NCBI GenBank assembly: GCA_001577055.1
Contig: LSCG01000003.1
Location: 1-44,717 of the forward strand
DNA: 44,717 bases
Direction: 5' to 3'
DNA from: Fidelibacterota bacterium TCS56
Lineage (GTDB): Bacteria > Fidelibacterota > Marinisomatia > Marinisomatales > TCS56
This document shows, piece after piece, positions 18,784-44,190 of the stretch. Positions within the stretch are counted from its first letter, which is position 1. Each line of letters opens with the position of its first letter. The notes below the pieces were generated by a model, which saw only the letters and a program-made list of their open reading frames with translations, was not told the origin of the DNA and did not search any database. The translations under genes were made by a program, and so were the position numbers.

Positions 18784-18793
18784 CTTTGATCGG

Positions 18794-23755: not shown

Positions 23756-23757
23756 TT

Positions 23758-25128
23758 ATGAGAAAAGAGATGTTCGGACATGAAATCGCCGTTTTGCGCG
23801 ATACCTTTCGCCGCCTGTTACGTCGCCATGCCAAGGTTAATTTGCAAAAGTTACTCGAAAAGACCCACCCGGCTGATCTGGCCCTGATCTACCGCCATTT
23901 CAATGAGGATGAGCAGAAGGCACTTTTCTCATTAATGGAAACCAGTGAACAAACGGCGGAGTTTCTGGGCGAATTGGATGAATCGATTCTACATGATCTG
24001 CTGGTAAATGAATCACCGCAGCGAATAGCTAACGTGATTCGCGAAGCCGGCACCAATGACCAGGCCCTGATCCTGGGGCTGCTGCCGGTGGAATTGACTA
24101 AATCCATCCTGGAATTGATGCATGACGAAGACCAGGAAGAAGTGGAAGAAATGATGGCCTACCCGGAGGACAGCGCCGGCAGCCTGATGTACACCGATGT
24201 TTTCACCATGCACGAGGAAACCCGGGCCGGCGAGGCTATCGCCGCACTCCAATCGTTTGAGAAAGCGGAAATGGTTTTTTATCTATATGTCACCGATGAC
24301 GAAGGCCGCCTGGCCGGTGTGATATCCCTGCGCGATCTGGTAACCACCCCGGCGGACGTCCATCTGGAAGACATTATGATTAAGCATGTTTTCTCGGTCA
24401 GGCCGGAAACCGATCAGGAGGAAGTGGCGAAAATCGTTTCCCGCTATAATTATCTGGCCGTACCGGTCATTGATGTGGACAACAAAATCCTGGGGATTGT
24501 GACCGTGGATGATGTCGTGGACGTAATCCGTGAGGAGGCTACCGAAGACTTCCTGCAGATGGCCGGGGTTGGCAAGGACCGGGAGATACTGCTTAAATCA
24601 AGCTGGGATAACGCCAAGAGTCGCCTGCCGTGGCTGTTTACCAGTTGGATGGGAGGAATAGCGGCGGCAATGATAATCGGCGTATTCGATTCCGCGCTGG
24701 AAAGCATGGTGGCCCTGGCGGCCTTTATTCCGGTGGTAATCGGCATGGGTGGTAATATCGGCACTCAGTCATCCACGATTGTGGTCCGGGGACTGGCCAC
24801 CGGCCGGGTTGAGGTCGGCAATACTTTTATGGTAATTTTCAAGGAAATCAAGGTAGGGCTGATTCTGGGGGTATTTTATGGCCTGCTGCTGGGTATCGTA
24901 GCCTATCTGCGCTTTATTTCCGGTCCGCCCCTGCTGGGTGTGGTCGTGGGCCTCAGTATCTGTATATCCATGCTGATTGCCGCCACCATCGGGACATTTG
25001 TTCCCCTGTTTCTGCGCCGTATGGATATTGATCCGGCTATCGCCACCGGTCCGTTCGTCACTACCAGTATTGACGTACTGGGCGTACTGTTTTACTTTAT
25101 GATTGCCACTGCCCTGCTGCCGATTTGA
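23758..25128 (+). CDS. mgtE: Magnesium transporter MgtE
   Basis: 456 aa. It has an N-domain, a CBS pair (..VTDDEGRLAGVISLRDL.. and ..VIDVDNKILGIVTVDDV..) and a TM domain with GMGGNIGTQSS. Confidence 0.95.
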   Translation: MRKEMFGHEIAVLRDTFRRLLRRHAKVNLQKLLEKTHPADLALIYRHFNEDEQKALFSLMETSEQTAEFLGELDESILHDLLVNESPQRIANVIREAGTNDQALILGLLPVELTKSILELMHDEDQEEVEEMMAYPEDSAGSLMYTDVFTMHEETRAGEAIAALQSFEKAEMVFYLYVTDDEGRLAGVISLRDLVTTPADVHLEDIMIKHVFSVRPETDQEEVAKIVSRYNYLAVPVIDVDNKILGIVTVDDVVDVIREEATEDFLQMAGVGKDREILLKSSWDNAKSRLPWLFTSWMGGIAAAMIIGVFDSALESMVALAAFIPVVIGMGGNIGTQSSTIVVRGLATGRVEVGNTFMVIFKEIKVGLILGVFYGLLLGIVAYLRFISGPPLLGVVVGLSICISMLIAATIGTFVPLFLRRMDIDPAIATGPFVTTSIDVLGVLFYFMIATALLPI

Positions 25129-26240
25129 TGCCCATCCCAACCGTCGTACTGCTGGCCGCCCTGGGCGGATATCTGGCTTTCCTGGTTTATTTTATCGCCG
25201 GGCTGATAAAACTGCAGCGCTTCCGGCCGTCGCCTCCTGAAACCCGGCCTCCGGTATCGGTAGTGGTAGCGGCCCGCAATGAAGCACAACACCTGGCGTC
25301 CCTGCTGACCGCCTTGAAGCAGCAGGATTATCCGGCAGATAAAATTGAATTCATAATTGTGGATGATCGCTCCACCGACTCAACCGGTACGATTATTGAT
25401 TCGTTTAGCGAAAAAGATGGGCGTTTCAGGCCGATTCATATCAAGCAGGCCAACCCTGAGATGATCGGCAAGAAATGGGCTTTAACCTGCGGGATTGAGG
25501 CCGCCGCCGGTGAGATTATCGCCACAACCGACGCCGATTGCATCCCCGGAAAATCGTGGGTTGCATCCCTGGTGGCGGCGATGCAGCCGGAGGTGGGGGC
25601 CGTAGTGGGATATTCCGCCGTGACTGCCCGCGGCCAAGGCCTGCTGGATCAATACCAGCAGTTGGATTTCCAGGCCCTGATGACCACCAATGCCGGCAGC
25701 CTGGCCCAGAGAAAAATAGTCAGTGGTTCGGGCCAGAATCTGGCTTTCCGCAAACAGCTCTTCAGCGCTATCGATGGATTTAAGCAAATTGGCCGCTTTG
25801 AGTCCGGTGACGACACCTTCCTGGTTACCGCTATCGCCAGACAGGCGAAAGTCATTTTCAATCCTGATCCCCGCAGCTTTATTGTCACCGCACCCTCGCC
25901 GACCTGGCTTGATTTCATCCGCCAGCGCGGCCGCTGGTCCCATGACATAGGGATTCTGATCCGCCACCACCGGCAACCGCTGGTTTTTCTGGGCCTGGCA
26001 CTGATTCTGAATCTGATGATTCTAATCCATCTGCTGTTACCAGGCTGCTGGAATTCCATTTTCTGGAAGGTGTGGCTGATTAAAATGATCTTTGACGGAC
26101 TGGTGATTCAAATCGGACAACAGCTATTCCGGCAAAAATTCAGCCTCGGGTTAAAAATCTTATGGATGCTGGCCCAGCCGCTATATATTCCCGTGATTGG
26201 AATAATGGGGCGTTGCACAACTTTCAAGTGGAAAAATTAA
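25128..26240 (+). CDS. Membrane-embedded processive family-2 glycosyltransferase (NodC/HAS/cellulose-synthase-like)
   Basis: One N-terminal TM helix, then VSVVVAARNE, DDRSTDST, TTDADC, SGDDTF and QRGRW (QxxRW), followed by C-terminal TM helices. The ATG overlaps the mgtE stop (TGATG). Confidence 0.8.
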   Translation: MPIPTVVLLAALGGYLAFLVYFIAGLIKLQRFRPSPPETRPPVSVVVAARNEAQHLASLLTALKQQDYPADKIEFIIVDDRSTDSTGTIIDSFSEKDGRFRPIHIKQANPEMIGKKWALTCGIEAAAGEIIATTDADCIPGKSWVASLVAAMQPEVGAVVGYSAVTARGQGLLDQYQQLDFQALMTTNAGSLAQRKIVSGSGQNLAFRKQLFSAIDGFKQIGRFESGDDTFLVTAIARQAKVIFNPDPRSFIVTAPSPTWLDFIRQRGRWSHDIGILIRHHRQPLVFLGLALILNLMILIHLLLPGCWNSIFWKVWLIKMIFDGLVIQIGQQLFRQKFSLGLKILWMLAQPLYIPVIGIMGRCTTFKWKN

Positions 26241-26254
26241 AACAAGCACCAATC

Positions 26255-27844
26255 ATGCGCTTATCTAGCAGTCTTTTATCCGTTCTCACGGGGGTGCTGC
26301 TAATCTCCGGCCTGGCGCAGGCGGGTGTTTTCGTGTCCCAACAACACGAAGTCTATCGGTTGATTGACTACCTGGTAACCAGCGGAGTAATTGCCGATCC
26401 GCCCGACCAGCGGCCGTTTGATTCCCAGCGGGTGGTGGAGATGCTGCAACAGGCACGGCCCGCGATAGCTTCACCGGCGATAATCCGGCGGATTGACCGC
26501 TACCTGGCCGAATTGGATTATTCGCGTCCACCGACAGATGACAGGTTTACCGTCTGGCGCTATGACTACCGTCTGGAGCGGGAATTGATCACGGTCTATC
26601 CCCTGTTTCGCAGTCAATTCAATCTGCTGCAGCATGATATACCCCAGACCCGGGCCGATTTCGGATTAAATATCCAGGGGCAGTTAAGTCCGCTGCTGTC
26701 ATTCAAATCAGAGATCGTATTCACGACCCTGATCGGCAACCCTGATATCAGCAAAATCTATGCTTTCGAAGAATCGCGGTCTACGTTTCTGACCGGTAGC
26801 CACGCCTTTTTTCCCCATTCCAAAGATACGCGCTTTAACAGCTCGCGGCTGTCGCTGAATTTCCGCAATGGTTTTGTGGCTGTGGGCAATGATCGCCATC
26901 AGTGGGGTCCCGGCCGCAGCGGCAATCTGCTGATCGCGCTGGACGACTACCCGCTGCCCAATATCGCTTTAGGTTTTAATATCGGTAAAGTGCGTTACAC
27001 CCAGATTTACGGAATTCTGGATAAATTATATCCAATAACGGTCGATCAACGAAAAACCTTCGTCGGCGACCAGCGTCAGATTGCCGCCCATCGCCTGGAA
27101 TTCCACCTGTCGCCCCGCCTGCAATGCAGCATCAGCGAGGCCATGGTTTTCAATCACCAACTGCCCCTCAGCTATATCAACCCCCTGTATCCATTTGCCA
27201 TCAGCGAGATCGACGGCGGCGATGCCGATAATAATCTGGCTGCTCTGGATATTTCCTTCCGTCCCCGAAAAAACACGCGCCTGTATGGAGAATGGATGGT
27301 AGATGATTTCAACTTCAACGAAAATCCTTTTACCTATTGGGGCAATAAATGGTCCTTGCTGGCGGGCTGGCAGCAGTCTGATCCGCTGGGCCTGACCGGT
27401 TCGTGGCTGACGGTGGAATATATTCGCCTCGAACCGTGGGTTTACACCCACCGCGATTCTACCAATCTCTATGAATATTACGGCCAGTCCCTTGGCTATA
27501 ACCTGGAACCTAACAGTCACCAGGTGGTGGTCAATTATAACTGGTTAATGCACGATAACTGGGAATTTCAGGCCGGGTTCCGCCTGCGCCAGCACGGGCC
27601 TGGCGATCGCCGCTTCGGTGTTCCTTTTGGCTATGATGAGAAAAAGGTCTTCCTGGGTGATGATTACGAAACCTGGTATCAAATCCATCTGGAGATCAGC
27701 CGAGTATTTTTCCGGGGATTTCGCTGGCGGATCCGCTGCTGGCAGGAAAGCTACCGGAACCGTCGCGTGGACAATACCTTTGATCAATTCGGCGGGGATG
27801 GCAGTTATATCGGCCTGCGATTATCGGTGGAGTTGAATTATTAA
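26255..27844 (+). CDS. Capsule-assembly Wzi-like outer-membrane protein
   Basis: The signal peptide MRLSSSLLSVLTGVLLISGLAQA starts at ATG 26255; the track ORF starts earlier, inside the GT2 gene. ..VGNDRHQWGPGRSGNLLIALDDYPLPNI.. resembles the Wzi family signature, and the C-terminus is beta-rich. The family call is from memory. Confidence 0.55.
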   Translation: MRLSSSLLSVLTGVLLISGLAQAGVFVSQQHEVYRLIDYLVTSGVIADPPDQRPFDSQRVVEMLQQARPAIASPAIIRRIDRYLAELDYSRPPTDDRFTVWRYDYRLERELITVYPLFRSQFNLLQHDIPQTRADFGLNIQGQLSPLLSFKSEIVFTTLIGNPDISKIYAFEESRSTFLTGSHAFFPHSKDTRFNSSRLSLNFRNGFVAVGNDRHQWGPGRSGNLLIALDDYPLPNIALGFNIGKVRYTQIYGILDKLYPITVDQRKTFVGDQRQIAAHRLEFHLSPRLQCSISEAMVFNHQLPLSYINPLYPFAISEIDGGDADNNLAALDISFRPRKNTRLYGEWMVDDFNFNENPFTYWGNKWSLLAGWQQSDPLGLTGSWLTVEYIRLEPWVYTHRDSTNLYEYYGQSLGYNLEPNSHQVVVNYNWLMHDNWEFQAGFRLRQHGPGDRRFGVPFGYDEKKVFLGDDYETWYQIHLEISRVFFRGFRWRIRCWQESYRNRRVDNTFDQFGGDGSYIGLRLSVELNY

Positions 27845-31949: not shown

Positions 31950-33212
31950 CTACTGCTTGGTATTTAGCTTGATTGTATGATTTAGCAACAAACGATTAAC
32001 TATCACATCATCAGTGATAGTTTTATCATTCTCTTTCTTAGTTTTAAAGAATTTATCGGCCAAGAACTGCATTTCATGCAGTTCCAATTCATCTTCAAAA
32101 CTGGACAGATCCACCTGCTTCTGCTCCAGTGCCCGATCTATTACCAGGCTTCGCGTAATAATATCATTGACAGCACGATATAATATGTACGGTGTATGCA
32201 CCGACATCCTGGCAATTGCACCGTGGAGATAACTGCGTTCAAGAACCCACTTCAGGTCCACTGACTGAGAACCGATTCTGGCTAATTCTTTCTCAAAAAC
32301 CACCCCTTCCAGCTTCTGGAGTGGATATTTCTCTTTAGACTGCCTGTCAGCTTCGATCATTTCAAACAGATCGGCCAGGTTCTGATACCGCAGCTCAACA
32401 TCGTGCTCCCTAAATAGACGGTCAGCCAGTTTGCGCATTTCATCATCGACAAACCCATACCCGCCCCTGGTAAGTTTTGCATTTATTTCCGCATATTCGG
32501 CTGTTGTATCAAAATCTGCTACTGGCATTTCTTCCCCAATCCATAATAAATGATAGCCGTATTGGGATTTTATTGGACCCGTAAGACCCCCAACTCCAGT
32601 AGCCCAGGCAGCATCCAATACATTTTTAGGCAAATCCTGGTAAGGAATAAATCCATAACTCCCACCTTTTATCTCCATGGAGGGTATTTCAGTGTAAATC
32701 GTTACCGCATCACCGAATCTAATCTCCTGTGATGAAACGCGGTGACGGGCTTTTTCAGCGCGCACCAAGGCTTGCTCCGGCATTCGATCAGAACGGTAAC
32801 CACTGGAAAAATAATGAGTAAATAATATTTCCTTGACTTTCTTTTTGACCTTTCGCTTCAAGAGAATGTCACGTTTAACACTATCGGTAGCCTGTTCTCT
32901 GATATGAGCGTCCATCACCGATTTGATTATCAGATCATTAGTTTTGTTTTCAAGAAAGCCTTCCAATGCGTTAGCATCATATTTATCCCCCAATTTATCG
33001 GCCGCCAGCTGAAGCGTGGCAAATCTTCTGGCAATACGATACTGTTTATCAGGAGAGAGCTGATAGTATTCACTGGAATCAATAAAGGTAAAAAACAGCT
33101 GATTATTTACCGGCTGCCCGTCAATTAAAACTGGTGAATCCGAGTTGAACAACCCACAACTCACGAGCAGGGACACAACCAGCAATGCAAGGGTAGATTT
33201 TTGAATATTCAT
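31950..33212 (-). CDS. Parvulin-type peptidyl-prolyl isomerase (SurA/PrsA-like), probable lipoprotein
   Basis: MNIQKSTLALLVVSLLVSCG contains a lipobox, and GPIKSQYGYHLLWI is a parvulin signature. ATG 33212 is preferred over the track's TTG at 33227. Confidence 0.8.
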   Translation of the reverse strand: MNIQKSTLALLVVSLLVSCGLFNSDSPVLIDGQPVNNQLFFTFIDSSEYYQLSPDKQYRIARRFATLQLAADKLGDKYDANALEGFLENKTNDLIIKSVMDAHIREQATDSVKRDILLKRKVKKKVKEILFTHYFSSGYRSDRMPEQALVRAEKARHRVSSQEIRFGDAVTIYTEIPSMEIKGGSYGFIPYQDLPKNVLDAAWATGVGGLTGPIKSQYGYHLLWIGEEMPVADFDTTAEYAEINAKLTRGGYGFVDDEMRKLADRLFREHDVELRYQNLADLFEMIEADRQSKEKYPLQKLEGVVFEKELARIGSQSVDLKWVLERSYLHGAIARMSVHTPYILYRAVNDIITRSLVIDRALEQKQVDLSSFEDELELHEMQFLADKFFKTKKENDKTITDDVIVNRLLLNHTIKLNTKQ

Positions 33213-33221
33213 AGTCAAATA

Positions 33222-33256
33222 TAACAAAAGGGCGACGTGATAGTCGCCCTTTTGTT
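33222..33256 (-). terminator. Rho-independent-type hairpin after the 787-aa gene, ending 14 nt before the PPIase start codon
   Basis: aaaaGGGCGACgtgataGTCGCCCtttt followed by a U-rich tail on the minus strand. It is near-identical in design to the 5648-5677 hairpin. Confidence 0.7.
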
Positions 33257-33278: not shown

Positions 33279-35642
33279 TTATTTCAACAACATCATTTTA
33301 CCGGTTAAGGATCTGCCTTCAGATTTCACCTGATACAGATACATACCGGAAGCAACCATCTGTCCAAAGTCGTTCGTACCAGACCAGGTAACAGTTTGGT
33401 CACCGGCATTCTGATGACCGTTGTGAATAGTAGCAATCTTCTGTCCCAAGAGTGAATAGACCGATACAGTTACCGAGCTGCTAACATCCAGTGTGTAGCT
33501 GATATTAGTAGTGGGGTTGAACGGATTCGGGTAATTCCCTTTCAGGGCAAATTCAGTCGGTGTGTTCAGATTATTATCATCAACACCCACGCCGCCATTG
33601 GCACCGAAATGGGTCATTGCCAGACGGAAGGGGCTGACTTCATAATAATCATAGTCGTAGGCACCAACCCAGTATGCAGCACCAGTGGAATAATCCCTTG
33701 CATACAATGACATGATATCAAAAGAGAAGAATGCGGCATTACTGGTTCCATACGTGCCATAGATACCGGTGGTGTAGGTAGTAGTACCGTCAGGATCACC
33801 AGTGGTTACATCCACTGCACCATCAAGACCTTCATAAGCCACGGTGGCGCCGGTTCCGGCATCGATTCCGTCCAGCCAGTTGGAATGGCCCGGATCATAA
33901 TTCGGATCATAATCCAGCACACAGGAACTGTCTGTCAGGAAAGTGGCCATCGGTCCACCAATATCATCACCAGCAACAGGTGTCAGACGCGAGACGGCGT
34001 CGGCAGCACCGTTGATATCGGGATAATAATGAGCAATACCAATATCTTCGGCAAAATCGCCGGCCGGTATTGCCACATCACCACTCCAGCCATAACGGGT
34101 GCCCAGCCATTCGTCACCTTCGACAACATAGGTTTTGTTGCCAGCGGCGAACCAGGGCTGCAAGGCAGCATCACTATCCCAGCTGGGGTATTCATATGAG
34201 GTAATCTCCAGAATTACGTCATAATTCCCTACCAGATCGGCGGTGATGTTTCCGTAAGAGGCATCCCAGATATCAAAGATACCGTCAACATCACATTCCC
34301 AAGCGAAATAGCAATAGGGAACGTAAAGCATGTTGCCATAAAGCGGCGTGGTATTATTGAAGATCAGGTAATCCCCATCTTCAGCCAGGAAGATGTAGTA
34401 GGATTTCTTTGGCGTTGTAGTGGCATTACCATTCACGTCAGTACCTTCGACCCAGTAGTAAACCATAGTACCGGCAGCCTGACCCGGAATCTGGCCTGAC
34501 CAGCGATCGCCGTCGGCGGTCATGGCTACATCATTGATGGCCGCAGTCGTGGAGTCGAGTTGATATTTCAGGACGACATTATCAACACCGGCATCACCGC
34601 CACTGGGGTTATCATCATAAGCATCGATGTAGTAATCGATAGGATCTTCAGAAACGGTGGTAACCAAAGTTTCTTCTTCACCATAGGTCGGGCCACGGTC
34701 ACCGGTCAGTAATACTGCCAGGTCAAAACCGAAGACCCAATTGCGAATATGCCAACCACCGCTGCCAGAGGTTCCTCCGCAGCCAGCGTAGAATTTCAAA
34801 GCGACCCAGGGGTCGTTCAGACCCAGCGGTTCACCATCTACGTACCAGAAACCGGTCGCATGATCAGCACCACCGCCATCACCGGAGAAGAATACCAGAA
34901 CACCAACCCAGGTACCGCCTTCAACGAAGGGTTCAGTACCGAAGTCGGAAGTAGCAAGCCAGTTGGGTATTATTTCATCGGCACTGCCTGGATTGTTGGT
35001 CGGGTCCAGTGTGGGAGCCACAAATCCATCCGGCCAGATCAATCCCTGTAACGGTAACCCGGGGGGTCCGAACGGGGAGTCTTCCTGTCCCAGCGGGTCG
35101 GCCGCATATTCAGCCACATCACTGGCACCACCGGCACATTCCGGCGGAGTTCCCGGAGGTGTATAGATCTCACCATCGAAGACCATGGCGCCGGAGTCGG
35201 CCATCATATCATAGCCGCCAATCCAACCAACACCATTCACAATGTCAAGGGGATAGCGGATTGGATCGCCGTTTGCATCGATACCATAGGGATAGGTCAA
35301 TTCATAAAGAGCGACCGTCATTTGCTGATCGCCTGTTCCCCATTCCACAATTGGTACGTTTACACCTTTAATATATCCGTCGGCGGGCATCTGGAAAGCC
35401 ACAATCATCGCATCGCCGGGCGACTGGACGAACTGGGTATTCCAGGTATCGGTATAGCTCATTGTATCGGCTACATCCCGATTGTTGTAAGCAGCCCGAG
35501 TAACAACAGTGGGCGTTCCTTTGCTTGACCGGAAGTCAAGGCCTGTTGTATTCGACTTATTAATCTCGATAATATTCCCTGCCATCAAAGACCAACTTGT
35601 CAGCAGCAATATACCGAGAACAATTAGCGCTCGTTTACTCAT
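33279..35642 (-). CDS. Large secreted hypothetical protein with a T9SS type-A C-terminal sorting domain
   Basis: 787 aa with signal peptide MSKRALIVLGILLLTSWSLMA. The C-terminus is YPNPFNPTTNISYTL..VSVYSLLGQKI..SGMYLYQVKS..KMMLLK. I recognise no catalytic motif. Confidence 0.75.
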   Translation of the reverse strand: MSKRALIVLGILLLTSWSLMAGNIIEINKSNTTGLDFRSSKGTPTVVTRAAYNNRDVADTMSYTDTWNTQFVQSPGDAMIVAFQMPADGYIKGVNVPIVEWGTGDQQMTVALYELTYPYGIDANGDPIRYPLDIVNGVGWIGGYDMMADSGAMVFDGEIYTPPGTPPECAGGASDVAEYAADPLGQEDSPFGPPGLPLQGLIWPDGFVAPTLDPTNNPGSADEIIPNWLATSDFGTEPFVEGGTWVGVLVFFSGDGGGADHATGFWYVDGEPLGLNDPWVALKFYAGCGGTSGSGGWHIRNWVFGFDLAVLLTGDRGPTYGEEETLVTTVSEDPIDYYIDAYDDNPSGGDAGVDNVVLKYQLDSTTAAINDVAMTADGDRWSGQIPGQAAGTMVYYWVEGTDVNGNATTTPKKSYYIFLAEDGDYLIFNNTTPLYGNMLYVPYCYFAWECDVDGIFDIWDASYGNITADLVGNYDVILEITSYEYPSWDSDAALQPWFAAGNKTYVVEGDEWLGTRYGWSGDVAIPAGDFAEDIGIAHYYPDINGAADAVSRLTPVAGDDIGGPMATFLTDSSCVLDYDPNYDPGHSNWLDGIDAGTGATVAYEGLDGAVDVTTGDPDGTTTYTTGIYGTYGTSNAAFFSFDIMSLYARDYSTGAAYWVGAYDYDYYEVSPFRLAMTHFGANGGVGVDDNNLNTPTEFALKGNYPNPFNPTTNISYTLDVSSSVTVSVYSLLGQKIATIHNGHQNAGDQTVTWSGTNDFGQMVASGMYLYQVKSEGRSLTGKMMLLK

Positions 35643-35695
35643 TGTTTCTCCTTTTTCCTTTCATGAAAGAAAGCTGATTGTAAGACCTCTCGTTT

Positions 35696-36805
35696 TTAAA
35701 ACGAAACTTTCAATGTCAGCCAGTTAACACCTTCAAAGAATTCGGCAGACCGGTAAGCATAATCAATAGATAGTCCCAAACCGGTCAATTTGGTCAAGTC
35801 CAGGCCAAAGCCGAGGCTCGGTCCCCAGATATATTCTTCAGATCTTCCGAACTCCCATTGATCATCGTCGGCATCATCATCTGTGTCTTCAACATTGTCA
35901 ATGCCATAGGGCTCGGGATCAAAGGCGGCCACATACCCACCGCGAAGATAAAACATATCCATCAACTTTGCTTCGGCACCGAAGCGATATTCGTCAAAGG
36001 AATAGTCATTATTCAGGAACGATGTGGCAAGCTTAATTTGAGCGACGCCCAGATCAATCGGGCCGTAGGTTGTCCCCAACTCAAAGGTTGTGGGCATATC
36101 GACATCCTGCAAAACAATCCTGCGTGGTTCGGCGGGAGCGCCTGGTTCGGTTGATGAAGGTGCGTGAAACTCTTCCAGGTCAGACCCATTGAACAACATT
36201 GTTAAGCCCAGGTTTCTAACCGATGCACCTATCATAAGCCCGGTTTCGCGGATACTGTACTGTACCCCGGCATCAATTACGAACCCGGTGGCAGAAACGG
36301 TCATGACTGATTCATTAATCATTTTAACGGCCGTACCAAAATTGATGCGATCGGTCATCGTTCTGGAGAACAAAAACCCGATTGTTACATAATTGGGGGA
36401 ATATGTACCTCCCGTGCCATCAGGGGCAAGAGCAGTGGTAATGTCAATTTTCCCAAAGTCCACAGATCTTAAGGACATACCGATTGTGTTTCGACCGAAT
36501 TTGGATGCAACAGCAGCGTAGTTTACTCCAATGTCACCCAGCCAGGTAGCATGTGAGAACATGGCCTCACCGCTAGTATTCATTCGGCACAATCCACCCA
36601 TATTCCATTCAATCGATTCAATTCCGGAGATGCTGGCCACATTGGCACCGGCCAGGGCAATACCGCCTGAACCCACAGGAATCAAAAGCTCCTGTGCGCC
36701 GGCCGTACCGCGGCGACGCTTACTACCCCCCTGGGCAATACCCGTAATAAAAACAGCCAGCAGGGAAACTACTATAATAGTCTTGTATTTTGTTATTTTA
36801 ATCAT
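35696..36805 (-). CDS. PorV/PorQ-family outer-membrane beta-barrel protein
   Basis: 369 aa. It has a signal peptide, then GTAGAQELLIPVGSGGIALAGANVASISGIESIEWNMGGL. It is beta-rich and ends ..LTLKVSF. Confidence 0.7.
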   Translation of the reverse strand: MIKITKYKTIIVVSLLAVFITGIAQGGSKRRRGTAGAQELLIPVGSGGIALAGANVASISGIESIEWNMGGLCRMNTSGEAMFSHATWLGDIGVNYAAVASKFGRNTIGMSLRSVDFGKIDITTALAPDGTGGTYSPNYVTIGFLFSRTMTDRINFGTAVKMINESVMTVSATGFVIDAGVQYSIRETGLMIGASVRNLGLTMLFNGSDLEEFHAPSSTEPGAPAEPRRIVLQDVDMPTTFELGTTYGPIDLGVAQIKLATSFLNNDYSFDEYRFGAEAKLMDMFYLRGGYVAAFDPEPYGIDNVEDTDDDADDDQWEFGRSEEYIWGPSLGFGLDLTKLTGLGLSIDYAYRSAEFFEGVNWLTLKVSF

Positions 36806-36819
36806 TTCCCAATCCTCCT

Positions 36820-39800
36820 TTAATAGACATCCAACCGTTCTTCGGGCTGGAAGATGGCTAGTTTTAGAACTTTCTGACCTAATTGTTTTCCATTGCTGTC
36901 TTCAACAGTAACATGGGCAATATACATTCCACTGGCAACCGGAATACCGAAACGATTCCGCATATCCCAGGCTGCACGGCGATTGGCGTCATTTTCTGAT
37001 TCTATAGTTTTCTCAACCTTGGCAACAATATCACCAGCCAGCGTGAAAATCCTGATTGTGGATGTACCAACCCCCAGATTTGTAAAGTAAACAAACCTCT
37101 CCAGAGGTGTAACTTCCTCAGGATTCTGGCCAAAGTACGGATTGGGATAAACATTTATCCGGTCGATTTGATCTTTAATGGTCTTTTTGTCGCTAACCGC
37201 TGCCAGTGTATGGGCGGTAAAGCGATATACATCCTCGCCGGGTATCAACTGGTTGCTGAAATGCACCTGGAATATATCTCCTGACTCGAAGATTGATTCT
37301 TCCTTATTAACCTGTAACATCCAGCCCATTTTCTGTCCATCAGCAGAATCCGGTCTGAGTGGGCTGGCCAGAATACCAGCTTCATCATAGGGTTCGTAGA
37401 CGGGCATGAATGCCACGTTTTTCGTTACCAGCCAGCCACCGGTTGTGGAATCTCTCTCAAAGAAGGGCCGGGTTGCGGCAACCTGATACACGGCAATATT
37501 CACTCTCTGGGTATCTTCTGGCTCCACCGTCCACATTTCGAATGGTACCCAGACAGTATCGGTTGGTTGTCCCACCAAGGCATAGTTATCGACAAAGGTG
37601 GCAATAGATCCGTTATCGGTAAACCTGAATTGAATATCTTTTTTCATATCCGGGGGATCCGGGCTGCCACTGGCTTGAGCCAGTGGTAGTGTACTCAGGT
37701 AGGCATTCCAGCTTCCATCTCCAATATCACTTGATGGTGGCAACGCAGCAGACATTACACTCTGGAAGATCATTGGAGTAAGCGGGTCATTATCAGCGAT
37801 AATGGAATAGCCACTATGGTTTTCCGGCTGGAAATAGGTGGCTTTTTCTGTTGTTAACAGGAAACCATCTGTTATGGTAATCCAGGCATGGTCAGCGGTT
37901 GGTTCCCCGATATAATCAGGTACAACTGCACCGCCATTCGTTTTTTCGGTATAGTATTCAGCGGTTACAGGGAAGTTTTTCTGATAGGCCAGGGTATCGC
38001 CTTCGTTCAAATCCACCAGCGTCCAGTAATTAGTGGAATCGTTGATGAAATCAAACGTCAATTCATAAGTATGGCCGGTTAATTGATATGGATCAATAAC
38101 CGTCGGGAAGAAATCAACCCCGGTGGCGAAACCATCAGTATGCTCAACGACAATTGTATCGCCAAACTCGAAGCTATATTCAGTTCCCACGCTCAATCCG
38201 CCCGGCACAACGTCGACTGCCTTGAATGGACTCTCCAGAAATGCAAACGTCGACATGGGATCCGGATCGTATAAATAAGAGGTTACCGCATAATAATACT
38301 GACGATTATTCACCAATTCGCGACTGTTTACATAGTCGTAATCGATTTCGATATGATGTCTAATTCCAGTATCGCGGCCTTCCTGAACCGGCATAACAAT
38401 TACACCACCGGTGATCTCATCCTGAACACCGCTGGAAAGAATCTGATATCCATCAATTACGTCATAGGTCTGAATCTTGGTCCAAGGACCGTTTACTGAT
38501 TCACCCTGATAGATATTATATCCTTCGAAGATATATCCGGCACAAGTATAATTCTCTACCCGATCACTGTTTTCTTCCCAAGACAGAATCAGTTTTTTAT
38601 CTTCCATGGCTACATCAACTTCCGGTGAGACCGGCGAACAAACTTTGAAGTTGGCATCGAAAGCCTGCTGTGCATGCAGGTCGAAAAACTTCAGCTTGTT
38701 GACTGATTTATCCCAGGCAGTACTGGCTGCTAAGATTACTGAGCCAACTACTTCCTGAGTGTCGCCGACTGCCATTGTAAACGGACCGGAAGACATCAGA
38801 TACCGGCGATCGCCAGGAGTATGATCCACCCAACCGGTGTTGGTAGATGGGTTACCGGGATGAATAAAATTGGAGGCGCGTCCGGTTGTCGGATCGACAA
38901 ACTGCTCATTGGTCAACCCAACACGACCATTCATGTAACGATAGGCTGCTTCAGCTGTATTCGGATCAACCAGGCGGGGATCAGCATTAATGTATTTTAC
39001 GAAGGAAGTGAGAGGTAGCTGGGTCTGGTCCGGGACTCGTCTTAAGTAATAGCCATTTTCCACACTCCAGGTCAGAATCTGGGCGGTATCGCCGGGAGCT
39101 TCAACCAGTGGTCCCTGGAAGAAGTCAGTCCCCACGGCAGGAACTTCAACTCCGTAAGTCTGATCTCCACCCGGAGCATTATAAGTATAGCCCAGACTAA
39201 GATCTGTATCGCAACCGACGAGATCATCTCCGGCGTCACCGACATCATCATCATGCCAGAATGATACAAAAACACTATCCAGGTCATCGGTTCCCTTATT
39301 TACTATTACCCAGCGCACAAACAGGATGTCACCAAGGGGACCAGCCTGGTCAAACCCAAACAACGATGTTTGCACTTCAACATTCATGGGTGGGGTACCA
39401 AACAGGGGGGTGTGTTTTGCCGCATTGGCGTCATTCATTACATACCAATGAAACAAATCACCCAGGATATCCGGATAGTCTCCATCCAGTATGTTATAAA
39501 CACCATCCCCATTTGCGTCTACAAAGGGGGCTCCTTCATCGGCCGGCCAATTTTCAAAATCACTTGTGGGCAAGGATTTTGCCACCAGCTCAGTTTCAAT
39601 ATTGGTACCATCAATCACGCTAATTGGCAGGTCCAAAACCATGCTCGAGAAAACAGCATAATCATTTTCGACAAAGGCCTGGATTTCTTTTTTGTGTATC
39701 TCAAAGATATGTCCGGAATCGTCATTATTACTGCCAATCGCACCGGGGGTAAACTCTTGAGTGTATTCCGCGCAGGCTGTTCGCATATCCTGCTCCCAGT

Positions 39801-40104
39801 CACCACCCGGAGTCCGGGACTTACCGCTTGCCAGCCAGATTCCAGACGCGAAAACGGCGAAGCGCCCACTACCTTTGGGCCACTCCAAACCGGACTCGCT
39901 CGTTACGTTATAACTAACAACATCGCCGTCGTTTCCATGGACAGTACTAATATTGTTACCATCCCAGATCACATGATCAACTGGTGCTGCAGCAATATCC
40001 AGGATTTTACTAAGTCTCTGATTGTGCAACTGTTCGTTTGGTCTAGCAATCAACATGCTCCCGGCAACCATAAAGCTTAGTATTAAGATTTTTTGCCTAA
40101 ACAT
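36820..40104 (-). CDS. Large secreted hypothetical protein with a FlgD-Ig/T9SS-like C-terminal domain
   Basis: 1094 aa with a signal peptide and no lipobox. It carries a DANGDGVYNILDGDYPD Ca-loop-like motif. The C-terminus is VYPNPYFG..IRIFTLAGDIV..SGMYIAHVTV.. An AAGGAG SD lies 29 nt after the TBDR gene. Confidence 0.7.
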   Translation of the reverse strand: MFRQKILILSFMVAGSMLIARPNEQLHNQRLSKILDIAAAPVDHVIWDGNNISTVHGNDGDVVSYNVTSESGLEWPKGSGRFAVFASGIWLASGKSRTPGGDWEQDMRTACAEYTQEFTPGAIGSNNDDSGHIFEIHKKEIQAFVENDYAVFSSMVLDLPISVIDGTNIETELVAKSLPTSDFENWPADEGAPFVDANGDGVYNILDGDYPDILGDLFHWYVMNDANAAKHTPLFGTPPMNVEVQTSLFGFDQAGPLGDILFVRWVIVNKGTDDLDSVFVSFWHDDDVGDAGDDLVGCDTDLSLGYTYNAPGGDQTYGVEVPAVGTDFFQGPLVEAPGDTAQILTWSVENGYYLRRVPDQTQLPLTSFVKYINADPRLVDPNTAEAAYRYMNGRVGLTNEQFVDPTTGRASNFIHPGNPSTNTGWVDHTPGDRRYLMSSGPFTMAVGDTQEVVGSVILAASTAWDKSVNKLKFFDLHAQQAFDANFKVCSPVSPEVDVAMEDKKLILSWEENSDRVENYTCAGYIFEGYNIYQGESVNGPWTKIQTYDVIDGYQILSSGVQDEITGGVIVMPVQEGRDTGIRHHIEIDYDYVNSRELVNNRQYYYAVTSYLYDPDPMSTFAFLESPFKAVDVVPGGLSVGTEYSFEFGDTIVVEHTDGFATGVDFFPTVIDPYQLTGHTYELTFDFINDSTNYWTLVDLNEGDTLAYQKNFPVTAEYYTEKTNGGAVVPDYIGEPTADHAWITITDGFLLTTEKATYFQPENHSGYSIIADNDPLTPMIFQSVMSAALPPSSDIGDGSWNAYLSTLPLAQASGSPDPPDMKKDIQFRFTDNGSIATFVDNYALVGQPTDTVWVPFEMWTVEPEDTQRVNIAVYQVAATRPFFERDSTTGGWLVTKNVAFMPVYEPYDEAGILASPLRPDSADGQKMGWMLQVNKEESIFESGDIFQVHFSNQLIPGEDVYRFTAHTLAAVSDKKTIKDQIDRINVYPNPYFGQNPEEVTPLERFVYFTNLGVGTSTIRIFTLAGDIVAKVEKTIESENDANRRAAWDMRNRFGIPVASGMYIAHVTVEDSNGKQLGQKVLKLAIFQPEERLDVY

Positions 40105-40133
40105 CTAATTCTCCTTAATCTTCTGATCTTGAT

Positions 40134-43100
40134 TTATAAATCTACCCGAATACCCAGACGAACCTGTCTCGGCGCTCCAAAGTTCAGCTCCTGGCTGGTG
40201 CGGGCATTATACAGATCTGCTCCCGATCCGGGACCACCAACAGCAAAACTGTTCAGCCAGTTCTGCCCTTCGTTGGTTGGCAACCATCCATCCTGATCCG
40301 GAAGACCGGTGCCAGTCCAAACATTGGATACATTTTCATAATCCAGTGCATTCATAATCACCAAGAAAACACCCATGTCAACTCCACCAATCTGGAAGGT
40401 TTTATCAAACCTTAAATCGACATTGATGGTGGCTGGCATCACACCAGTATTCATACCAGCAATTGGGCGGTCTGAAATACCACCGGCGAAGACAGTCGTA
40501 CGTGGCCGGGCCGGTGTATAGCGCATCCCACTGCCATACTGCAGGGCCATATTGGCCCCCAGAAGTGGTATTACTGAGTTTGCCGGTGTACGGTAGTCTA
40601 AAATCAGACTGGCGGTATGCCGCTGGTCATAGTCCAGTGGTGAAATGAAGGTCGGGTTGTTTCCACCCTGCCATGCAATGCGAAACAGGCCAGCTGAGTT
40701 GGATCCGGTACCACCAGCATACTGCAGAGTATAATTTGTGGAGATTTGGACATTCTTTATACGCCTGGTGTTAAGAGATAGACTCAGGCCGCGAACAGTT
40801 CCATAATCACCATTAACAAAGAGGGCATATACGCCCGTTTTATTGGCAATATTCCGCAACTGAACCATACCGGACATTTGCTTGTAAAACACAGTTGCAT
40901 CAATGCTGATGTTATTGGTTATCAGCTGCTTGAACCCGATTTCATACGCCGTAGTTTTAACCGGCTGCAGATCCGGATTGGCTGAAGTCGTATAGTTACC
41001 CTGCTCCAGGTTTGATACAAATCTGGTGTAACTCAGGAACAAGCGGTTCAATTCGGGTAACTGGAAATATTTCCCATATTGAGCATGGAATACCGTTCTG
41101 TCGGTAACCGGGAAGGCCAACCCAATCCGCGGGCTGATCATCGAGCGGGTGGGAGCATCAATGCGATGCGGCAGACCGGTAGAATCATCGGAAGTGGGAA
41201 GGGCATAGCGGTACTCCTGAGGATTCAGAACACCATCTTCATTCGCATCGCTTGCATAAACGATATCGGCTAAAGCGCCAACATCATTAATCACAATATT
41301 CTCCTTTCCACCGGTAGCCGGATTCCAGATCTTATTGGCCGCATCGATATAATCATATCGGGCGCCAACATTCAGGATAAGGTCTTCGATTTCGTATTTA
41401 TCCTGAAGATAAAACGCCCCAATAACTGGAGTTCTGGCTTTATCTAAACCGCTGTCAGCTTTCTTTTCACCGGTAACATCGTAGCCAATATTCTCCGCAT
41501 AAGCTGATTTGTATGCCTGGTAGATATAATCACCAATATAATCGTTGTAATCAACTACACCGTCATTATTATAATCAGCATTCTGCAGATCGGCACCCCA
41601 GGTATCACTAACATCCTGGTTGTAATCCAGTATTCCATCGGCCGACAGATCAGTGAAAACCTCACCAGAGTCCGGATCGAAAACACCATTACCATTAATA
41701 TCATTAAACTCATCGGACTGCATATTGCCGTCTGAACCAAGAATAAGGGCGCCCAGTTCATCGCTCCAGCGATACCGATCTTGGGTGGGTGCGTAAGGAG
41801 CGTTGTTAGCAAAATAGCGCGTCAGAGAACGGGCTCTTCCCATTTGATAATAGCGCAAGGTGGTTTTTTCATACGATCCACCCATTTTTATCTCATGGTA
41901 CCCAAGCTGCCAGGTCAAAGATCCATCAAATGTGTTCCGCTGGGTTTCACGCTTACGGTAACTATCCGTTAAGAAACCGGGCAGGGTGAAGTTGGCTAAT
42001 TCTGTCATTGGTGTGGGACGGATACCAACGTCGGAAAACAGTGGGTTAATCCAGGAGGTATCATAATCAAGGCTTACGAATGTGAGATTTGTATCCGTTT
42101 GCCAGTAGTCATGTGTGCTAAGTCCATCATTAAGTGAATCAACCAGGGAAGAGTCAACGTAAGTCCAAGCCGGATTATGGAAGTCATCCCGTTTTCCATA
42201 CTGAATATATGGAATTTGTGAGTCGGACACTGTACCATCTTCATAAATATAGCGGCCGCTACCCTTTTCCATCACCGGGTCATAACGTTCGTAAAAATCA
42301 CCATAGTGACTGGCCTGAACCCGGAAAAAGACCTTTTCCATTCCTGGTACAGTACCAGACAGGCGGGCATACATTGTGTTGACTTTGTCGGTTGCAACGT
42401 TAAAACGGTTTAGCAGTTCTCCGGTGGAGCCGATTTTATCCTTGGTACTGGCATCATTATACTTCGCAAAAATTGAGCGGGCAACCAAATACTCTGAATT
42501 AGAATTATCGTAGTGCGATCCACCAAACTTCATTTTCCATGGCAAGCCGGTTACGGGATGTAAATCAACCAGCAAATTTCCAGTCAAGCTAAGACGCTTC
42601 ATCCAGTTATTGGGCTTGGGCCCCCGTACATATTCCATTTGGTCTGTGTCAATTGCCAGCCAGTCAGGAGCATTATAAGCGTCGTCATCGTTAGCATCAG
42701 TGTAGGGCTCGTCTTCATCCCAAACAGTATTACCATTAAGGTCTTCAAATTCCTCACCATTGTCTGGTAATCCATTGGCAGAATTGACCGGGCCGTTATA
42801 GCGGCCAACTAATCCAGTGAAAGGACTTCCATCGGCCATCTCGGTTAATTCGACAGCCGTAAAGAAACGCAAGAACTTTAACGCTGGAATTGGTCCGCCA
42901 AAAGAACCGGAGAATAAATTATAACCATACGAGAATGCAAAGGGCATTTCATCCTCGATGGTCGGATCTGAAGAAAGAAATCCATCGGTTATGGCTTCCA
43001 GAGATAATTGATATTCCTCTCCACCGGTTTTGGAGGCCGTATTAATAATACCAGCATTGGCAGATCCGTATTCGGCACCAAATCCACCAGCCTGGAAAGA

Positions 43101-43763
43101 GACCTCCTCCAGCCCAAGATTGGGGATATCGCCACTGTACCCACGCCGGTTTGAAAACCTGTTCCCAGCAGACGGGTTGGCGATCTGGTAATTGGAGTTG
43201 ACATACACACCGTCGACGTAGTATCCGACCTCTTCAGATCTACCACCACGAACATGCAAATTGACATTATCGTCAACTACACCGGTTTGTAATGCAGCAA
43301 TGTTACGCGATCCGCGCACAGCCATATTTTTAATATCTTCGGCGCGCGTTACCCGAACTTCATTGGTCGCATTGATTTCGATCAATGGTTTTTTCGCAAA
43401 AACGGTAACTGATTCACCCATTACAGCTTCTGGTGACATACCTATGGTATATCCTTCCGAAGATGTATATAAATTAGTAGTTAAGTCTCGTGTCACGCGT
43501 ACGTTCTCAATGATTACGTCAGCATAACCGATAAAAGTAGTTTTTACCCTGTATATCCCGGGCGGGACAAACATAATGATAAATTCACCGTTATCATCCG
43601 TAGCTGCCCCAAACGAGGTACCCAGCAATACAATGTTAACGCCGGGCATTGGGTTATTGGTTTCGCTATCAACAACCTTCCCAACAATCTTTCCTGTCTC
43701 AGTAGCGAAAACTGCTGACAATAGCAGTATACACAATATAATACAGGTAGTAAAATTCTTCAT
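40134..43763 (-). CDS. TonB-dependent receptor with an N-terminal carboxypeptidase-regulatory-like domain (SusC-like architecture) and Ca-loop insertions
   Basis: 1209 aa. After the signal peptide, GKIVGKVVDSETNNPMPGVNIVLLGTSFGAATDDNGEF.. is the CarboxypepD_reg domain. ESVTVFA is a TonB-box-like element, and the plug region reads ..AALQTGVVDDNVNLHVRGGRSEEVGYYVDGV... A long beta-barrel ends ..RLGIRVDL. Confidence 0.85.
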   Translation of the reverse strand: MKNFTTCIILCILLLSAVFATETGKIVGKVVDSETNNPMPGVNIVLLGTSFGAATDDNGEFIIMFVPPGIYRVKTTFIGYADVIIENVRVTRDLTTNLYTSSEGYTIGMSPEAVMGESVTVFAKKPLIEINATNEVRVTRAEDIKNMAVRGSRNIAALQTGVVDDNVNLHVRGGRSEEVGYYVDGVYVNSNYQIANPSAGNRFSNRRGYSGDIPNLGLEEVSFQAGGFGAEYGSANAGIINTASKTGGEEYQLSLEAITDGFLSSDPTIEDEMPFAFSYGYNLFSGSFGGPIPALKFLRFFTAVELTEMADGSPFTGLVGRYNGPVNSANGLPDNGEEFEDLNGNTVWDEDEPYTDANDDDAYNAPDWLAIDTDQMEYVRGPKPNNWMKRLSLTGNLLVDLHPVTGLPWKMKFGGSHYDNSNSEYLVARSIFAKYNDASTKDKIGSTGELLNRFNVATDKVNTMYARLSGTVPGMEKVFFRVQASHYGDFYERYDPVMEKGSGRYIYEDGTVSDSQIPYIQYGKRDDFHNPAWTYVDSSLVDSLNDGLSTHDYWQTDTNLTFVSLDYDTSWINPLFSDVGIRPTPMTELANFTLPGFLTDSYRKRETQRNTFDGSLTWQLGYHEIKMGGSYEKTTLRYYQMGRARSLTRYFANNAPYAPTQDRYRWSDELGALILGSDGNMQSDEFNDINGNGVFDPDSGEVFTDLSADGILDYNQDVSDTWGADLQNADYNNDGVVDYNDYIGDYIYQAYKSAYAENIGYDVTGEKKADSGLDKARTPVIGAFYLQDKYEIEDLILNVGARYDYIDAANKIWNPATGGKENIVINDVGALADIVYASDANEDGVLNPQEYRYALPTSDDSTGLPHRIDAPTRSMISPRIGLAFPVTDRTVFHAQYGKYFQLPELNRLFLSYTRFVSNLEQGNYTTSANPDLQPVKTTAYEIGFKQLITNNISIDATVFYKQMSGMVQLRNIANKTGVYALFVNGDYGTVRGLSLSLNTRRIKNVQISTNYTLQYAGGTGSNSAGLFRIAWQGGNNPTFISPLDYDQRHTASLILDYRTPANSVIPLLGANMALQYGSGMRYTPARPRTTVFAGGISDRPIAGMNTGVMPATINVDLRFDKTFQIGGVDMGVFLVIMNALDYENVSNVWTGTGLPDQDGWLPTNEGQNWLNSFAVGGPGSGADLYNARTSQELNFGAPRQVRLGIRVDL

Positions 43764-44163
43764 CTTTTACTCTCCATTAGCTGATATATTTAGGATTACA
43801 ATACCCTGGCGAGGTATTACTTCTGTAACCCTTCGGTCCTGAAAGTGTCGTTATTTTCCCCTCAGTTCCTCTCTTCTTTCACTCTTCTACCGTTTTACCA
43901 GTAGTTCAAATCCTCGACAAACCTACAGCGATGTTGCTGTCTAAGTCAATAAAATAATCTCATTACACTACAACTGCCAAGTATGCAATTCTATACGGTA
44001 ACGGAAGGTGAAATCGATTCCCTTACAAAGGACGTGCTGATAGTAGGACAGCAGCTTAGTTTATTTCATAGAGATCAGCAGTGTATTTGAGCTAATAAAC
44101 ACAAATATCCGTCTTTTCTATTTCCAGCTAAATCTGATACTTAGCTGCACCTAAAAGAAAGAT

Positions 44164-44190
44164 GGCTGGCCAAATGGGATTCGACCAGCC
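44164..44190 (-). terminator. Probable rho-independent terminator of the MMPL-family gene
   Basis: The minus-strand RNA is GGCUGG-15 nt-CCAGCC followed by AUCUUUCUUUU, starting 7 nt after the stop codon. Confidence 0.5.

Follow-up and report, generated by a model that had tools for sequence, protein, structure and literature searches.

A 44,717-nt stretch of contig LSCG01000003.1 from Fidelibacterota bacterium TCS56 (hereafter the window) carries on its reverse strand a four-gene outer-membrane locus, which is the subject of this analysis. The names of homologues assign the window to Marinimicrobia/Fidelibacterota. In the order of transcription, the open reading frame (ORF) list places in the locus the genes for a 1209-aa TonB-dependent transporter (40134-43763), a 1094-aa secreted protein (36820-40104), a 369-aa barrel resembling PorV and PorQ (35696-36805) and a 787-aa secreted protein (33279-35642). 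The intergenic gaps measure 29, 14 and 53 nt, and each of the four start codons is preceded by a GGAG or AGGAG Shine-Dalgarno sequence. An intrinsic terminator follows the 787-aa gene on the same strand (33223-33256), with a 14-bp stem and a U-run (ΔG -27.8 kcal/mol; z = -7.1; none of 200 shuffles equally good). Because this terminator closes the fourth gene and the upstream MMPL gene has a separate one of its own (44164-44190), the four genes constitute one transcription unit behind a 430-nt leader, which lies between the MMPL-gene terminator and the transporter gene. The original prediction had described four co-directional genes of these sizes and gaps, their Shine-Dalgarno sites and a single strong hairpin after the fourth, and this observation was confirmed in every detail examined. 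The interpretation attached to it is partly supported, as set out below.

Within the leader, a candidate promoter was located at 43920-43960 on the reverse strand. It consists of a conserved block, AGATTATTTTATTGACTTA, which contains a -35-like TTGACT and lies about 180 nt 5′ of the transporter start codon. Apart from the block with the Shine-Dalgarno sequence and start codon, no fully conserved stretch of the leader is longer in comparison with the closest relative, locus L091, where the order is MMPL, transporter, 1097-aa, 369-aa and 783-aa proteins, peptidyl-prolyl isomerase (PPIase), DHquinase and ATP-binding cassette (ABC) transporter. Its reading as a promoter stays at the level of consensus. 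Rfam searches of the entire window at gathering thresholds, the 430-nt leader included, returned no riboswitch or known RNA.

The first three genes recur together across a wide range of bacteria. A genome scan found a relative of the 1094-aa protein in at least 583 stretches, and the best 80 loci were examined. Neighbours were counted if, on the same strand, a transporter homologue ended no more than 900 nt upstream and a PorV-family homologue started no more than 900 nt downstream. Both neighbours were found in 57 of the 62 loci with enough flanking sequence and neither in the other 5; one neighbour alone was seen in none. The 57 triad loci belong to Neomarinimicrobiota, Ignavibacteria/Melioribacter, Eisenbacteria, Latescibacterota, KSB1, Calditrichota, Kryptonium (Kryptonia), Rhodothermales and unclassified 'Bacteroidota' metagenome-assembled genomes (MAGs), the MAG loci being phylogenetically non-independent, and gene order and strand are constant in at least eight phylum- or class-level lineages. 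Since the same order recurs across phyla, it is far beyond chance. A reverse start from two barrel homologues of about 41% identity also led to triads. At the loci lacking both neighbours, paralogues of the 1094-aa family stand in tandem, two to four together. Apparent fusions of the transporter and the 1094-aa protein in three GC-rich loci (L019, L050, L067) were judged to be ORF-calling artefacts.

The fourth gene does not share this distribution. The 787-aa family is essentially restricted to Marinimicrobia (136 hits); beyond them, a similar gene is sporadic and stands upstream of the transporter (L049, L062, L077), for which reason we place it outside the conserved module. The unit that is conserved is the triad of transporter, 1094-aa protein and barrel, rather than a tetrad. 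The check suggested earlier, for a four-gene order conserved in related genomes, thus turned out in favour of the first three genes (57 of 62 loci, none with a single neighbour) and not of the 787-aa gene.

The transporter matches the Pfam domains CarbopepD_reg_2 (residues 26-100), Plug (132-238; PF07715, 26.1 bits against a cutoff of 23.9) and the TonB_dep_Rec barrel (545-1089; PF00593, 82.9 bits against 27), in agreement with the CarboxypepD_reg/plug/barrel receptor described earlier. PF13715 and PF13620 are both matched, and PF25183 in part. The protein has a signal peptide, a 22-strand-type barrel and, N-terminal to the plug, the TonB-box-like stretch GESVTVFA. Across an alignment of 45 triad transporters, a TonB-box consensus V.V.A..PL, the plug motifs and a C-terminal outer-membrane protein (OMP) β-signal, PRQIRLG[IV]R[LV].[YF], are all kept. 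Judged by these features, the 1209-aa protein appears to be a complete, working TonB-gated transporter. It had been called SusC-like, and this did not hold. With the SusC/RagA model TIGR04056 the score was 52.6 bits, where 368.25 are required, and the alignment covered only model positions 2-110; the transporter of an Ignavibacterial triad (L018) failed it in the same manner. As the model fails and the N-terminal extension alone is aligned, the SusC identity was dropped; by its architecture the protein is instead best described as a putative Oar-class TonB-dependent transporter.

The 1094-aa protein has a signal peptide that contains no cysteine and therefore no lipobox; with no SusD match in Pfam either, the earlier statement that this gene does not encode a SusD-like lipoprotein is upheld. 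Its core (residues ~45-705) comprises a large Asp-rich β-sandwich domain and an Fn3-like domain. Residues 1-705 are conserved, whereas residues ~705-980 are swapped between lineages at the same locus; a divergent, type IX secretion system (T9SS)-type C-terminal domain (CTD) follows at ~984-1083, and residues 1084-1094 form a conserved tail, FQPEERLDVY. Eleven residues are invariant in 116 sequences of the family: N224, D225, D285, D287, G289, D294, D314, P381, R434, G440 and Q479. A profile search at E<=1e-30 collected 5,590 clusters (50% identity), which makes this a very large, uncharacterised family, and we found no description of it in the open-access literature.

An AlphaFold2 model of the 1094-aa protein (predicted local distance difference test (pLDDT) 86, predicted template modelling score (pTM) 0.71) is all-beta and built of β-sandwich domains. 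Foldseek found no global match for it in the PDB (TM <= 0.18). The top local match was PorZ; there was also local likeness to non-catalytic β-sandwich domains of GH94, GH116 and GH149 enzymes, and weak likeness to S-layer and Ig-array proteins. Pfam and NCBIfam searches with the protein, 38 relatives and separate segments (E<=10) gave nothing beyond CTD models, and a sequence search of the PDB returned the PorU CTD alone (E = 0.04). In Pfam, PDB and Foldseek searches the body matched neither a β-propeller nor a C25 peptidase. A hidden enzyme or surface glycan-binding protein (SGBP) was considered and rejected, as the Pfam, NCBIfam and PDB sequence searches were empty outside the CTD and Foldseek gave local resemblances only. 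Neither of the two large proteins had been credited with a recognisable catalytic motif, and none of the Pfam, NCBIfam or PDB matches obtained for them outside their CTDs suggests one, there being no such matches. A sortase-like His-Cys-Arg arrangement (H231/C298/R434), brought to attention by an LVGCD motif, was likewise rejected: H231 is present in 82 of the 116 sequences, and C298 is replaced by V, S, I, G or A in 18 of them, members of true gene triads included. Because the Cys and His are not conserved across the 116 sequences, a cysteine transpeptidase is excluded. Taken together, sequence and model point to a Sec-exported, non-lipidated, all-beta multidomain protein with a T9SS-type CTD.

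This CTD departs from the generic type-A domain in several respects. It reaches 17.1 bits on TIGR04183, under the cutoff of 23, and has no Pfam match; at E<=0.1, FlgD_ig was found in 19 and Por_Secre_tail in 5 of the 38 relatives. The type-A hallmarks PNPY, ASGMY and KLAV are nevertheless kept. An hhalign comparison with the CTD of the 787-aa protein gave 95% probability, with VASGMY common to both. The proposal that both large proteins end in a sorting domain with the SGMY signature is supported for the 787-aa protein by its 41.6 bits on TIGR04183; for the 1094-aa protein these likenesses speak for it, while the model score falls short. BLASTP and hhalign found the CTD alone in common between the two proteins, and they were rejected as paralogues. 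The best NCBIfam matches of the 1094-aa CTD are PorZ (NF052228, 28.7 bits) and PorU (NF033707, 27.9 bits), and the CTDs of these two proteins are the sole sequence matches of the family; full-length identity with either was not found, the cutoffs of 260 and 420 being missed and the CTD alone aligned. PorZ is the best CTD match in Marinimicrobia and in Ignavibacteria alike. In the AlphaFold2 model, no disordered linker separates the CTD from the body, unlike in the 787-aa protein. From this similarity and the confidence of the model, we infer that the CTD is uncleaved and retained.

The 11-residue tail that follows the CTD has the consensus [FI]Q[PE]E[EQ][RQ].[LI]D..[YFL] and is present in 44 of 45 triad members, as against 4 of 12 free-standing paralogues. 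Tandem arrays without transporter or barrel occur in L024, L033, L072, L079 and L085, and many of their members have lost the tail.

The 369-aa barrel matches the family model PorV_fam (NF033709) with 120.4 bits against a cutoff of 90, in a full-length alignment (35-369). It misses the ortholog models for PorV (NF033710, 37.2 bits, cutoff 250), PorQ (NF033711, 63.5, cutoff 220) and PorV2 (NF052325, 43.4, cutoff 325), PorQ being its best ortholog-level match, and the barrel of the Ignavibacterial L018 shows the same pattern. In a sequence search of the PDB, the Flavobacterium johnsoniae PorV (6h3i_F) matches at E=0.003. The barrel has 549 homologous clusters, most of them unnamed and otherwise named 'PorV/PorQ family protein' by their sources. 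A few homologues also match Toluene_X/FadL (PF03349); the barrel itself scores far higher on the PorV/PorQ models than on FadL. It is a FadL-like barrel of the PorV/PorQ family that, by the NCBI ortholog models, is neither PorV nor PorQ.

A second PorV/PorQ-family barrel of 307 aa is encoded at 18794-19717 on the reverse strand (PorQ model 108 bits, cutoff 220). This second, unrelated-looking barrel scores above the triad barrel on the PorQ model. Given a second PorQ-like gene in the window, the barrel of the triad is an extra paralogue. The private PorV paralogue of the original prediction is in this way sustained, by the failure of the PorV, PorQ and PorV2 models and by the barrel at 18794-19717. 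The two putative cargoes between which it was placed are not equivalent, as their CTDs differ: that of the 1094-aa protein is divergent, without linker and followed by the tail, and that of the 787-aa protein is canonical type-A and preceded by a linker. We propose that the triad barrel is the cognate anchor of the 1094-aa protein. Directly after the second barrel gene lies a 951-aa ORF (16006-18861, reverse strand) with a degenerate M1-peptidase-like region, in which WFGN is kept and HExxH lost, and with an OMP-type C-terminus (...WGFYF); the 307-aa barrel and this ORF may be another pair of barrel and partner.

The CTD of the 787-aa protein (704-784) is recognised by TIGR04183 (41.6 bits, cutoff 23), by PF18962 Por_Secre_tail (30.3, cutoff 27) and by FlgD_ig, and this canonical type-A domain is preceded by a 27-residue disordered linker (683-709). 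The AlphaFold2 model (pLDDT 82) consists of β-sandwich domains and an α/β middle domain. The protein was also considered as an enzyme, but Foldseek found no global fold match for it in the PDB. The α/β domain (425-680) bears a weak resemblance to SGNH/SIAE-like domains. As judged from its sequence and distribution, the 787-aa gene appears to be a Marinimicrobia-specific add-on encoding an accessory T9SS type-A cargo.

The Marinimicrobia transporters carry two acidic loop insertions of 46-89 residues, absent elsewhere, with up to four DxDxDG-like motifs. The window protein has the longest version, at residues ~318-380 and ~672-760, with three such DxDxDG or DxNxDG motifs of calcium-binding-like type. 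These insertions were confined to that Marinimicrobia lineage in which the 787-aa gene is found too, and the loops may dock the extra 787-aa cargo, although the correlation is confounded by phylogeny. No Pfam match to dockerin or cohesin was obtained at E<=0.01 in the transporter loops or in the 787-aa protein. Some relatives of the 787-aa protein, longer than it, do contain Dockerin_1, Cohesin and PKD domains (P0132, P0178, P0207, P0211, P0223, P0228, P0230), which suggests cohesin-dockerin-type assembly on Marinimicrobia cell surfaces.

The surroundings of the triad are dominated by genes of the cell envelope. In the window, the gene downstream of the operon encodes a parvulin-type, SurA/PrsA-like PPIase lipoprotein (31950-33209, reverse strand; Pfam Rotamase; lipobox LLVSC). 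The mechanically called start of its ORF, a TTG at 33227, falls within the operon terminator; the true start is probably an ATG near 33209, which gives the LLVSC lipoprotein signal. The PPIase is a separate transcription unit and is kept as downstream neighbour in Marinimicrobia, at L001, L007-L011, L086, L088 and L091; in an Ignavibacterial triad, a SurA-like gene lies 40 nt downstream. It may serve as a folding helper. Among 52 loci, the triad is accompanied by a GWxTD-domain protein in 13, by an upstream DUF4397 protein in 9, by an LpxL-type lipid A acyltransferase in 9, by a SurA/PrsA-like PPIase in 7 and by a PIG-L-domain protein in 3, with L089 in addition. The GWxTD protein (TIGR04514) stands behind the triad in Ignavibacteria, in KSB1 and in one 'Deferribacteres' MAG (L014, L017, L018, L020, L036, L049, L062, L076, L077, L004, L029); at Ignavibacterial loci the lipid A acyltransferase usually comes next after it, and the DUF4397 gene often stands ahead of the triad. 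The MMPL neighbour is not kept outside close relatives. In the open-access full-text literature, we found neither the triad nor a function for GWxTD nor a Marinimicrobia T9SS described.

No pattern of carbohydrate-active enzymes (CAZymes), peptidases or regulators was seen in the triad flanks. The window locus has no SusD, CAZyme or regulator of a polysaccharide utilization locus (PUL); its neighbours are MMPL, PPIase and ABC transporter genes. The view that this is no ordinary PUL is borne out by these absences, by the failure of the SusC model and by the lack of any enzyme or SGBP match.

Elsewhere in the window, an 807-aa protein (3226-5649, forward strand) combines three Lamin-tail domains with a T9SS sorting domain of the CHU_C (type-B) kind. 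The window contains three CTD-bearing proteins and two PorV/PorQ-family barrels, and no T9SS core gene (PorK/L/M/N, Sov/SprA, PorU, PorV) was found within its 44,717 nt. The CTD proteins, the 807-aa one among them, and the barrels are indirect signs that the genome uses a T9SS. At 22967-27844 on the forward strand, co-directional genes encode an Rce1-like CAAX protease, MgtE, a glycosyltransferase of family 2 and an outer-membrane protein of the Wzi-like, capsule-assembly kind; in the more distant Marinimicrobia L001 and L088, MgtE and the glycosyltransferase are again close to the triad.

The reading we favour, with a probability of roughly 0.45, is that the locus specifies an outer-membrane uptake complex powered by TonB, with a surface subunit that comes by way of the T9SS rather than by lipoprotein export. 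As the transporter, the CTD protein and the private barrel are co-inherited in an all-or-none manner, their distribution argues for one physical or functional unit. This co-inheritance is one ground for the model; another is the nearest mechanistic precedent for the second and third genes, that of PorZ and PorU, which remain uncleaved on PorQ and PorV, respectively, cognate PorV-like barrels being proposed in a review to protect the CTD from cleavage (PMC10202324). FadL-like BamG docks a surface protein through its loops, and complexes of surface lipoproteins with TonB-dependent transporters are known in Bacteroides (PMC12578637). Of the purpose-built surface complex that had been suggested for the locus, a partnership of three genes is supported, on the synteny of 57 of 62 loci, without the 787-aa gene as a member.

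In the proposed mechanism, the T9SS would carry the 1094-aa protein across the outer membrane, and the uncleaved CTD and 11-residue tail would then hold it on the cognate barrel, like PorZ on PorQ and PorU on PorV. The protein would thereby be positioned beside or over the transporter. Its Asp-rich N-terminal core may contribute what stays constant, be it docking or a Ca2+/ligand site, and the swappable module at 705-980 may provide specificity. A captured ligand would be passed on to the transporter and taken up as TonB pulls the plug, so that the 1094-aa protein would act as a ligand-capturing accessory, a functional counterpart of SusD or BtuG without lipidation. In the Marinimicrobia lineage, a conventionally processed cargo of 787 aa and larger acidic loops on the transporter seem to have been added later. 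Several observations speak for this model. Among them are the retention of the tail with the triad, the TonB-box-like motif, plug motifs and β-signal kept in the 45 transporters, and the status of the barrel as an extra paralogue. The variability of 705-980 and the arrays of paralogues fit a binding role. The PorZ and PorU matches, PorZ as the top Foldseek match, the sub-cutoff score on the type-A model and the lack of a linker suggest a CTD of the retained type.

Other observations weigh against an uptake complex. Neither the Foldseek comparison nor the segment scans revealed a recognisable ligand-binding fold in the 1094-aa protein. The recurrent neighbours (PPIase, LpxL-type, GWxTD, DUF4397, PIG-L) are envelope housekeeping genes, not catabolic enzymes or regulators, and neither a riboswitch nor a known regulator in the window points to a substrate. 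No genome with two triads was seen among the best 80 loci, in which each species is represented by one genome, and this single-triad pattern is no less compatible with a constitutive machine than with a nutrient system.

Such a machine could be a housekeeping envelope or T9SS-processing module, in which the 1094-aa protein and the barrel would be the counterpart of the PorZ-PorQ or PorU-PorV attachment pair, handling the surface attachment of CTD cargo or an LPS-type (lipopolysaccharide) anchor, with the transporter as an associated component. The porU and porV genes of Bacteroidetes have the same size and adjacency as the pair described here. PorQ and PorZ are the best matches of the barrel and the CTD in Marinimicrobia and Ignavibacteria, PorZ is the top fold match, and both the absence of second triads and the recurrent LpxL-type acyltransferase, PIG-L, SurA-like PPIase and GWxTD neighbours would be expected of such a module. 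We nonetheless consider this unlikely. The ortholog models are missed by wide margins (PorZ 28.7 against 260, PorU 27.9 against 420, PorQ 63.5 against 220), the body matches no β-propeller or C25 peptidase and its Cys/His catalytic pair is excluded, and a better PorQ-like gene is already present elsewhere in the window. Moreover, core machinery seldom swaps half its sequence or forms tandem arrays, and the obligate first gene, an intact TonB-gated transporter, would be left unexplained. A looser partnership, in which the barrel is a channel of the FadL type through which a hydrophobic or amphipathic compound passes, the transporter acts independently and the 1094-aa protein is a co-transcribed adhesin or surface coat, seems improbable to us. 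It can draw on the place of PorV within the FadL superfamily and the few barrel homologues that match Toluene_X/FadL, on the β-sandwich array of the 1094-aa model with its weak S-layer and Ig-array likeness, and on the MMPL-type lipid exporter upstream in this lineage. All-or-none co-occurrence across phyla, with a fixed order and very short gaps, fits it poorly, however; the barrel prefers the PorV/PorQ models to FadL by far, tail retention correlates with the presence of both neighbours, and the MMPL gene is not conserved beyond close relatives.

It is also conceivable that the transporter works outward, as an Oar-like, TonB-energised exit channel for the 1094-aa protein, which the barrel would receive and hold; the triad would then be a self-contained secretion-and-anchoring system, parallel or ancestral to the T9SS. 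The Oar architecture (CarboxypepD_reg extension, plug, barrel and PF25183 match), the strict co-inheritance of cargo, barrel and transporter and the divergence of the CTD from the generic type-A model are all compatible with this. Calditrichota MAGs, furthermore, carry the triad, yet the genome paper on Caldithrix abyssi reported the Bacteroidetes-type gliding machinery to be absent. If true, such a device would be widespread in phyla of the Fibrobacteres-Chlorobi-Bacteroidetes (FCB) group that may lack parts of the canonical machinery. We hold it to be very improbable all the same. The 1094-aa CTD keeps PNPY, ASGMY and KLAV, which are recognised by T9SS translocons, and the free-standing paralogue arrays have no transporter of their own. 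A canonical type-A cargo in the operon, together with a CHU_C-type cargo and a PorQ-like barrel in the window, implies an ordinary T9SS in this genome. A folded protein of 1000 residues would be large for a 22-strand barrel, and Oar itself is a single precedent.

If the favoured uptake complex is real, many FCB phyla outside Bacteroidia, among them Marinimicrobia, Ignavibacteria, KSB1, Latescibacterota, Eisenbacteria and Calditrichota, would build TonB-transporter surface complexes in an undescribed way, with an accessory that the T9SS delivers and a private PorV-like barrel keeps in place, whereas SusD and BtuG are flipped lipoproteins. The principle of a cognate shuttle or anchor, so far shown for PorP/SprF with type-B CTDs and for PorZ-PorQ, would then hold for a CTD of type-A-like kind and for nutrient uptake as well. 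A family of ~5,600 clusters at 50% identity that is without a Pfam entry would gain its first functional context, and attention would be drawn to a deeply conserved outer-membrane module, present in single copy, of marine and sediment heterotrophs that are abundant but poorly cultured. Some of the MAGs with the triad are assigned to Melioribacter and Ignavibacteria, both groups with cultured members, so that the idea should be testable.

The triad resembles several described systems in part. Like Oar of Myxococcus xanthus, which belongs to the subclass of TonB-dependent transporters defined under that name, the transporter combines a CarboxypepD_reg extension, a plug with TonB box and a barrel of ~1000 aa, without a SusD partner (PMC6434023). 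The role of Oar is in protein secretion, neither a PorV-like barrel nor a CTD protein is linked to it, and the likeness is here an architectural one. In BamG-BamH, a 14-strand FadL-family barrel likewise docks a surface protein through extracellular loops (PMC12578637); BamG, however, is of the FadL/Toluene_X branch, BamH is a lipoprotein without a CTD, and the pair serves OMP assembly. With SusCD utilisomes and BtuB-BtuG the locus shares a transporter gene immediately upstream of that for a large surface accessory thought to capture ligand. It differs from them in that the transporter is no SusC/RagA, the partner is a non-lipoprotein with no relation to SusD or BtuG, a CTD and a dedicated barrel are proposed as the anchor, and neither CAZymes nor regulators nor several loci in one genome were seen.

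Further analogies are found in the T9SS itself. In Flavobacterium johnsoniae, type-B CTD cargo is linked to its own PorP/SprF barrel, the shuttle determining the final location of the cargo, whereas type-A CTDs are stated all to use the general PorV (PMC12618676); otherwise, dedicated shuttles are documented for type-B CTDs alone; here, by contrast, a type-A-like CTD is combined with a PorV/PorQ-family barrel and a TonB transporter. The pairs PorZ-PorQ and PorU-PorV of Porphyromonas gingivalis resemble the triad in joining a CTD protein to a cognate PorV/PorQ-family barrel, and the uncleaved, tethering CTD that is described for them (PMC10202324) is what we propose for the 1094-aa protein. Unlike PorZ and PorU, this protein has a body without a β-propeller or C25 peptidase, and all ortholog cutoffs are failed. 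The 1094-aa protein and its barrel are further set apart from both pairs by the TonB transporter that obligately precedes them, by the additional conserved tail and by a family that diversifies and duplicates.

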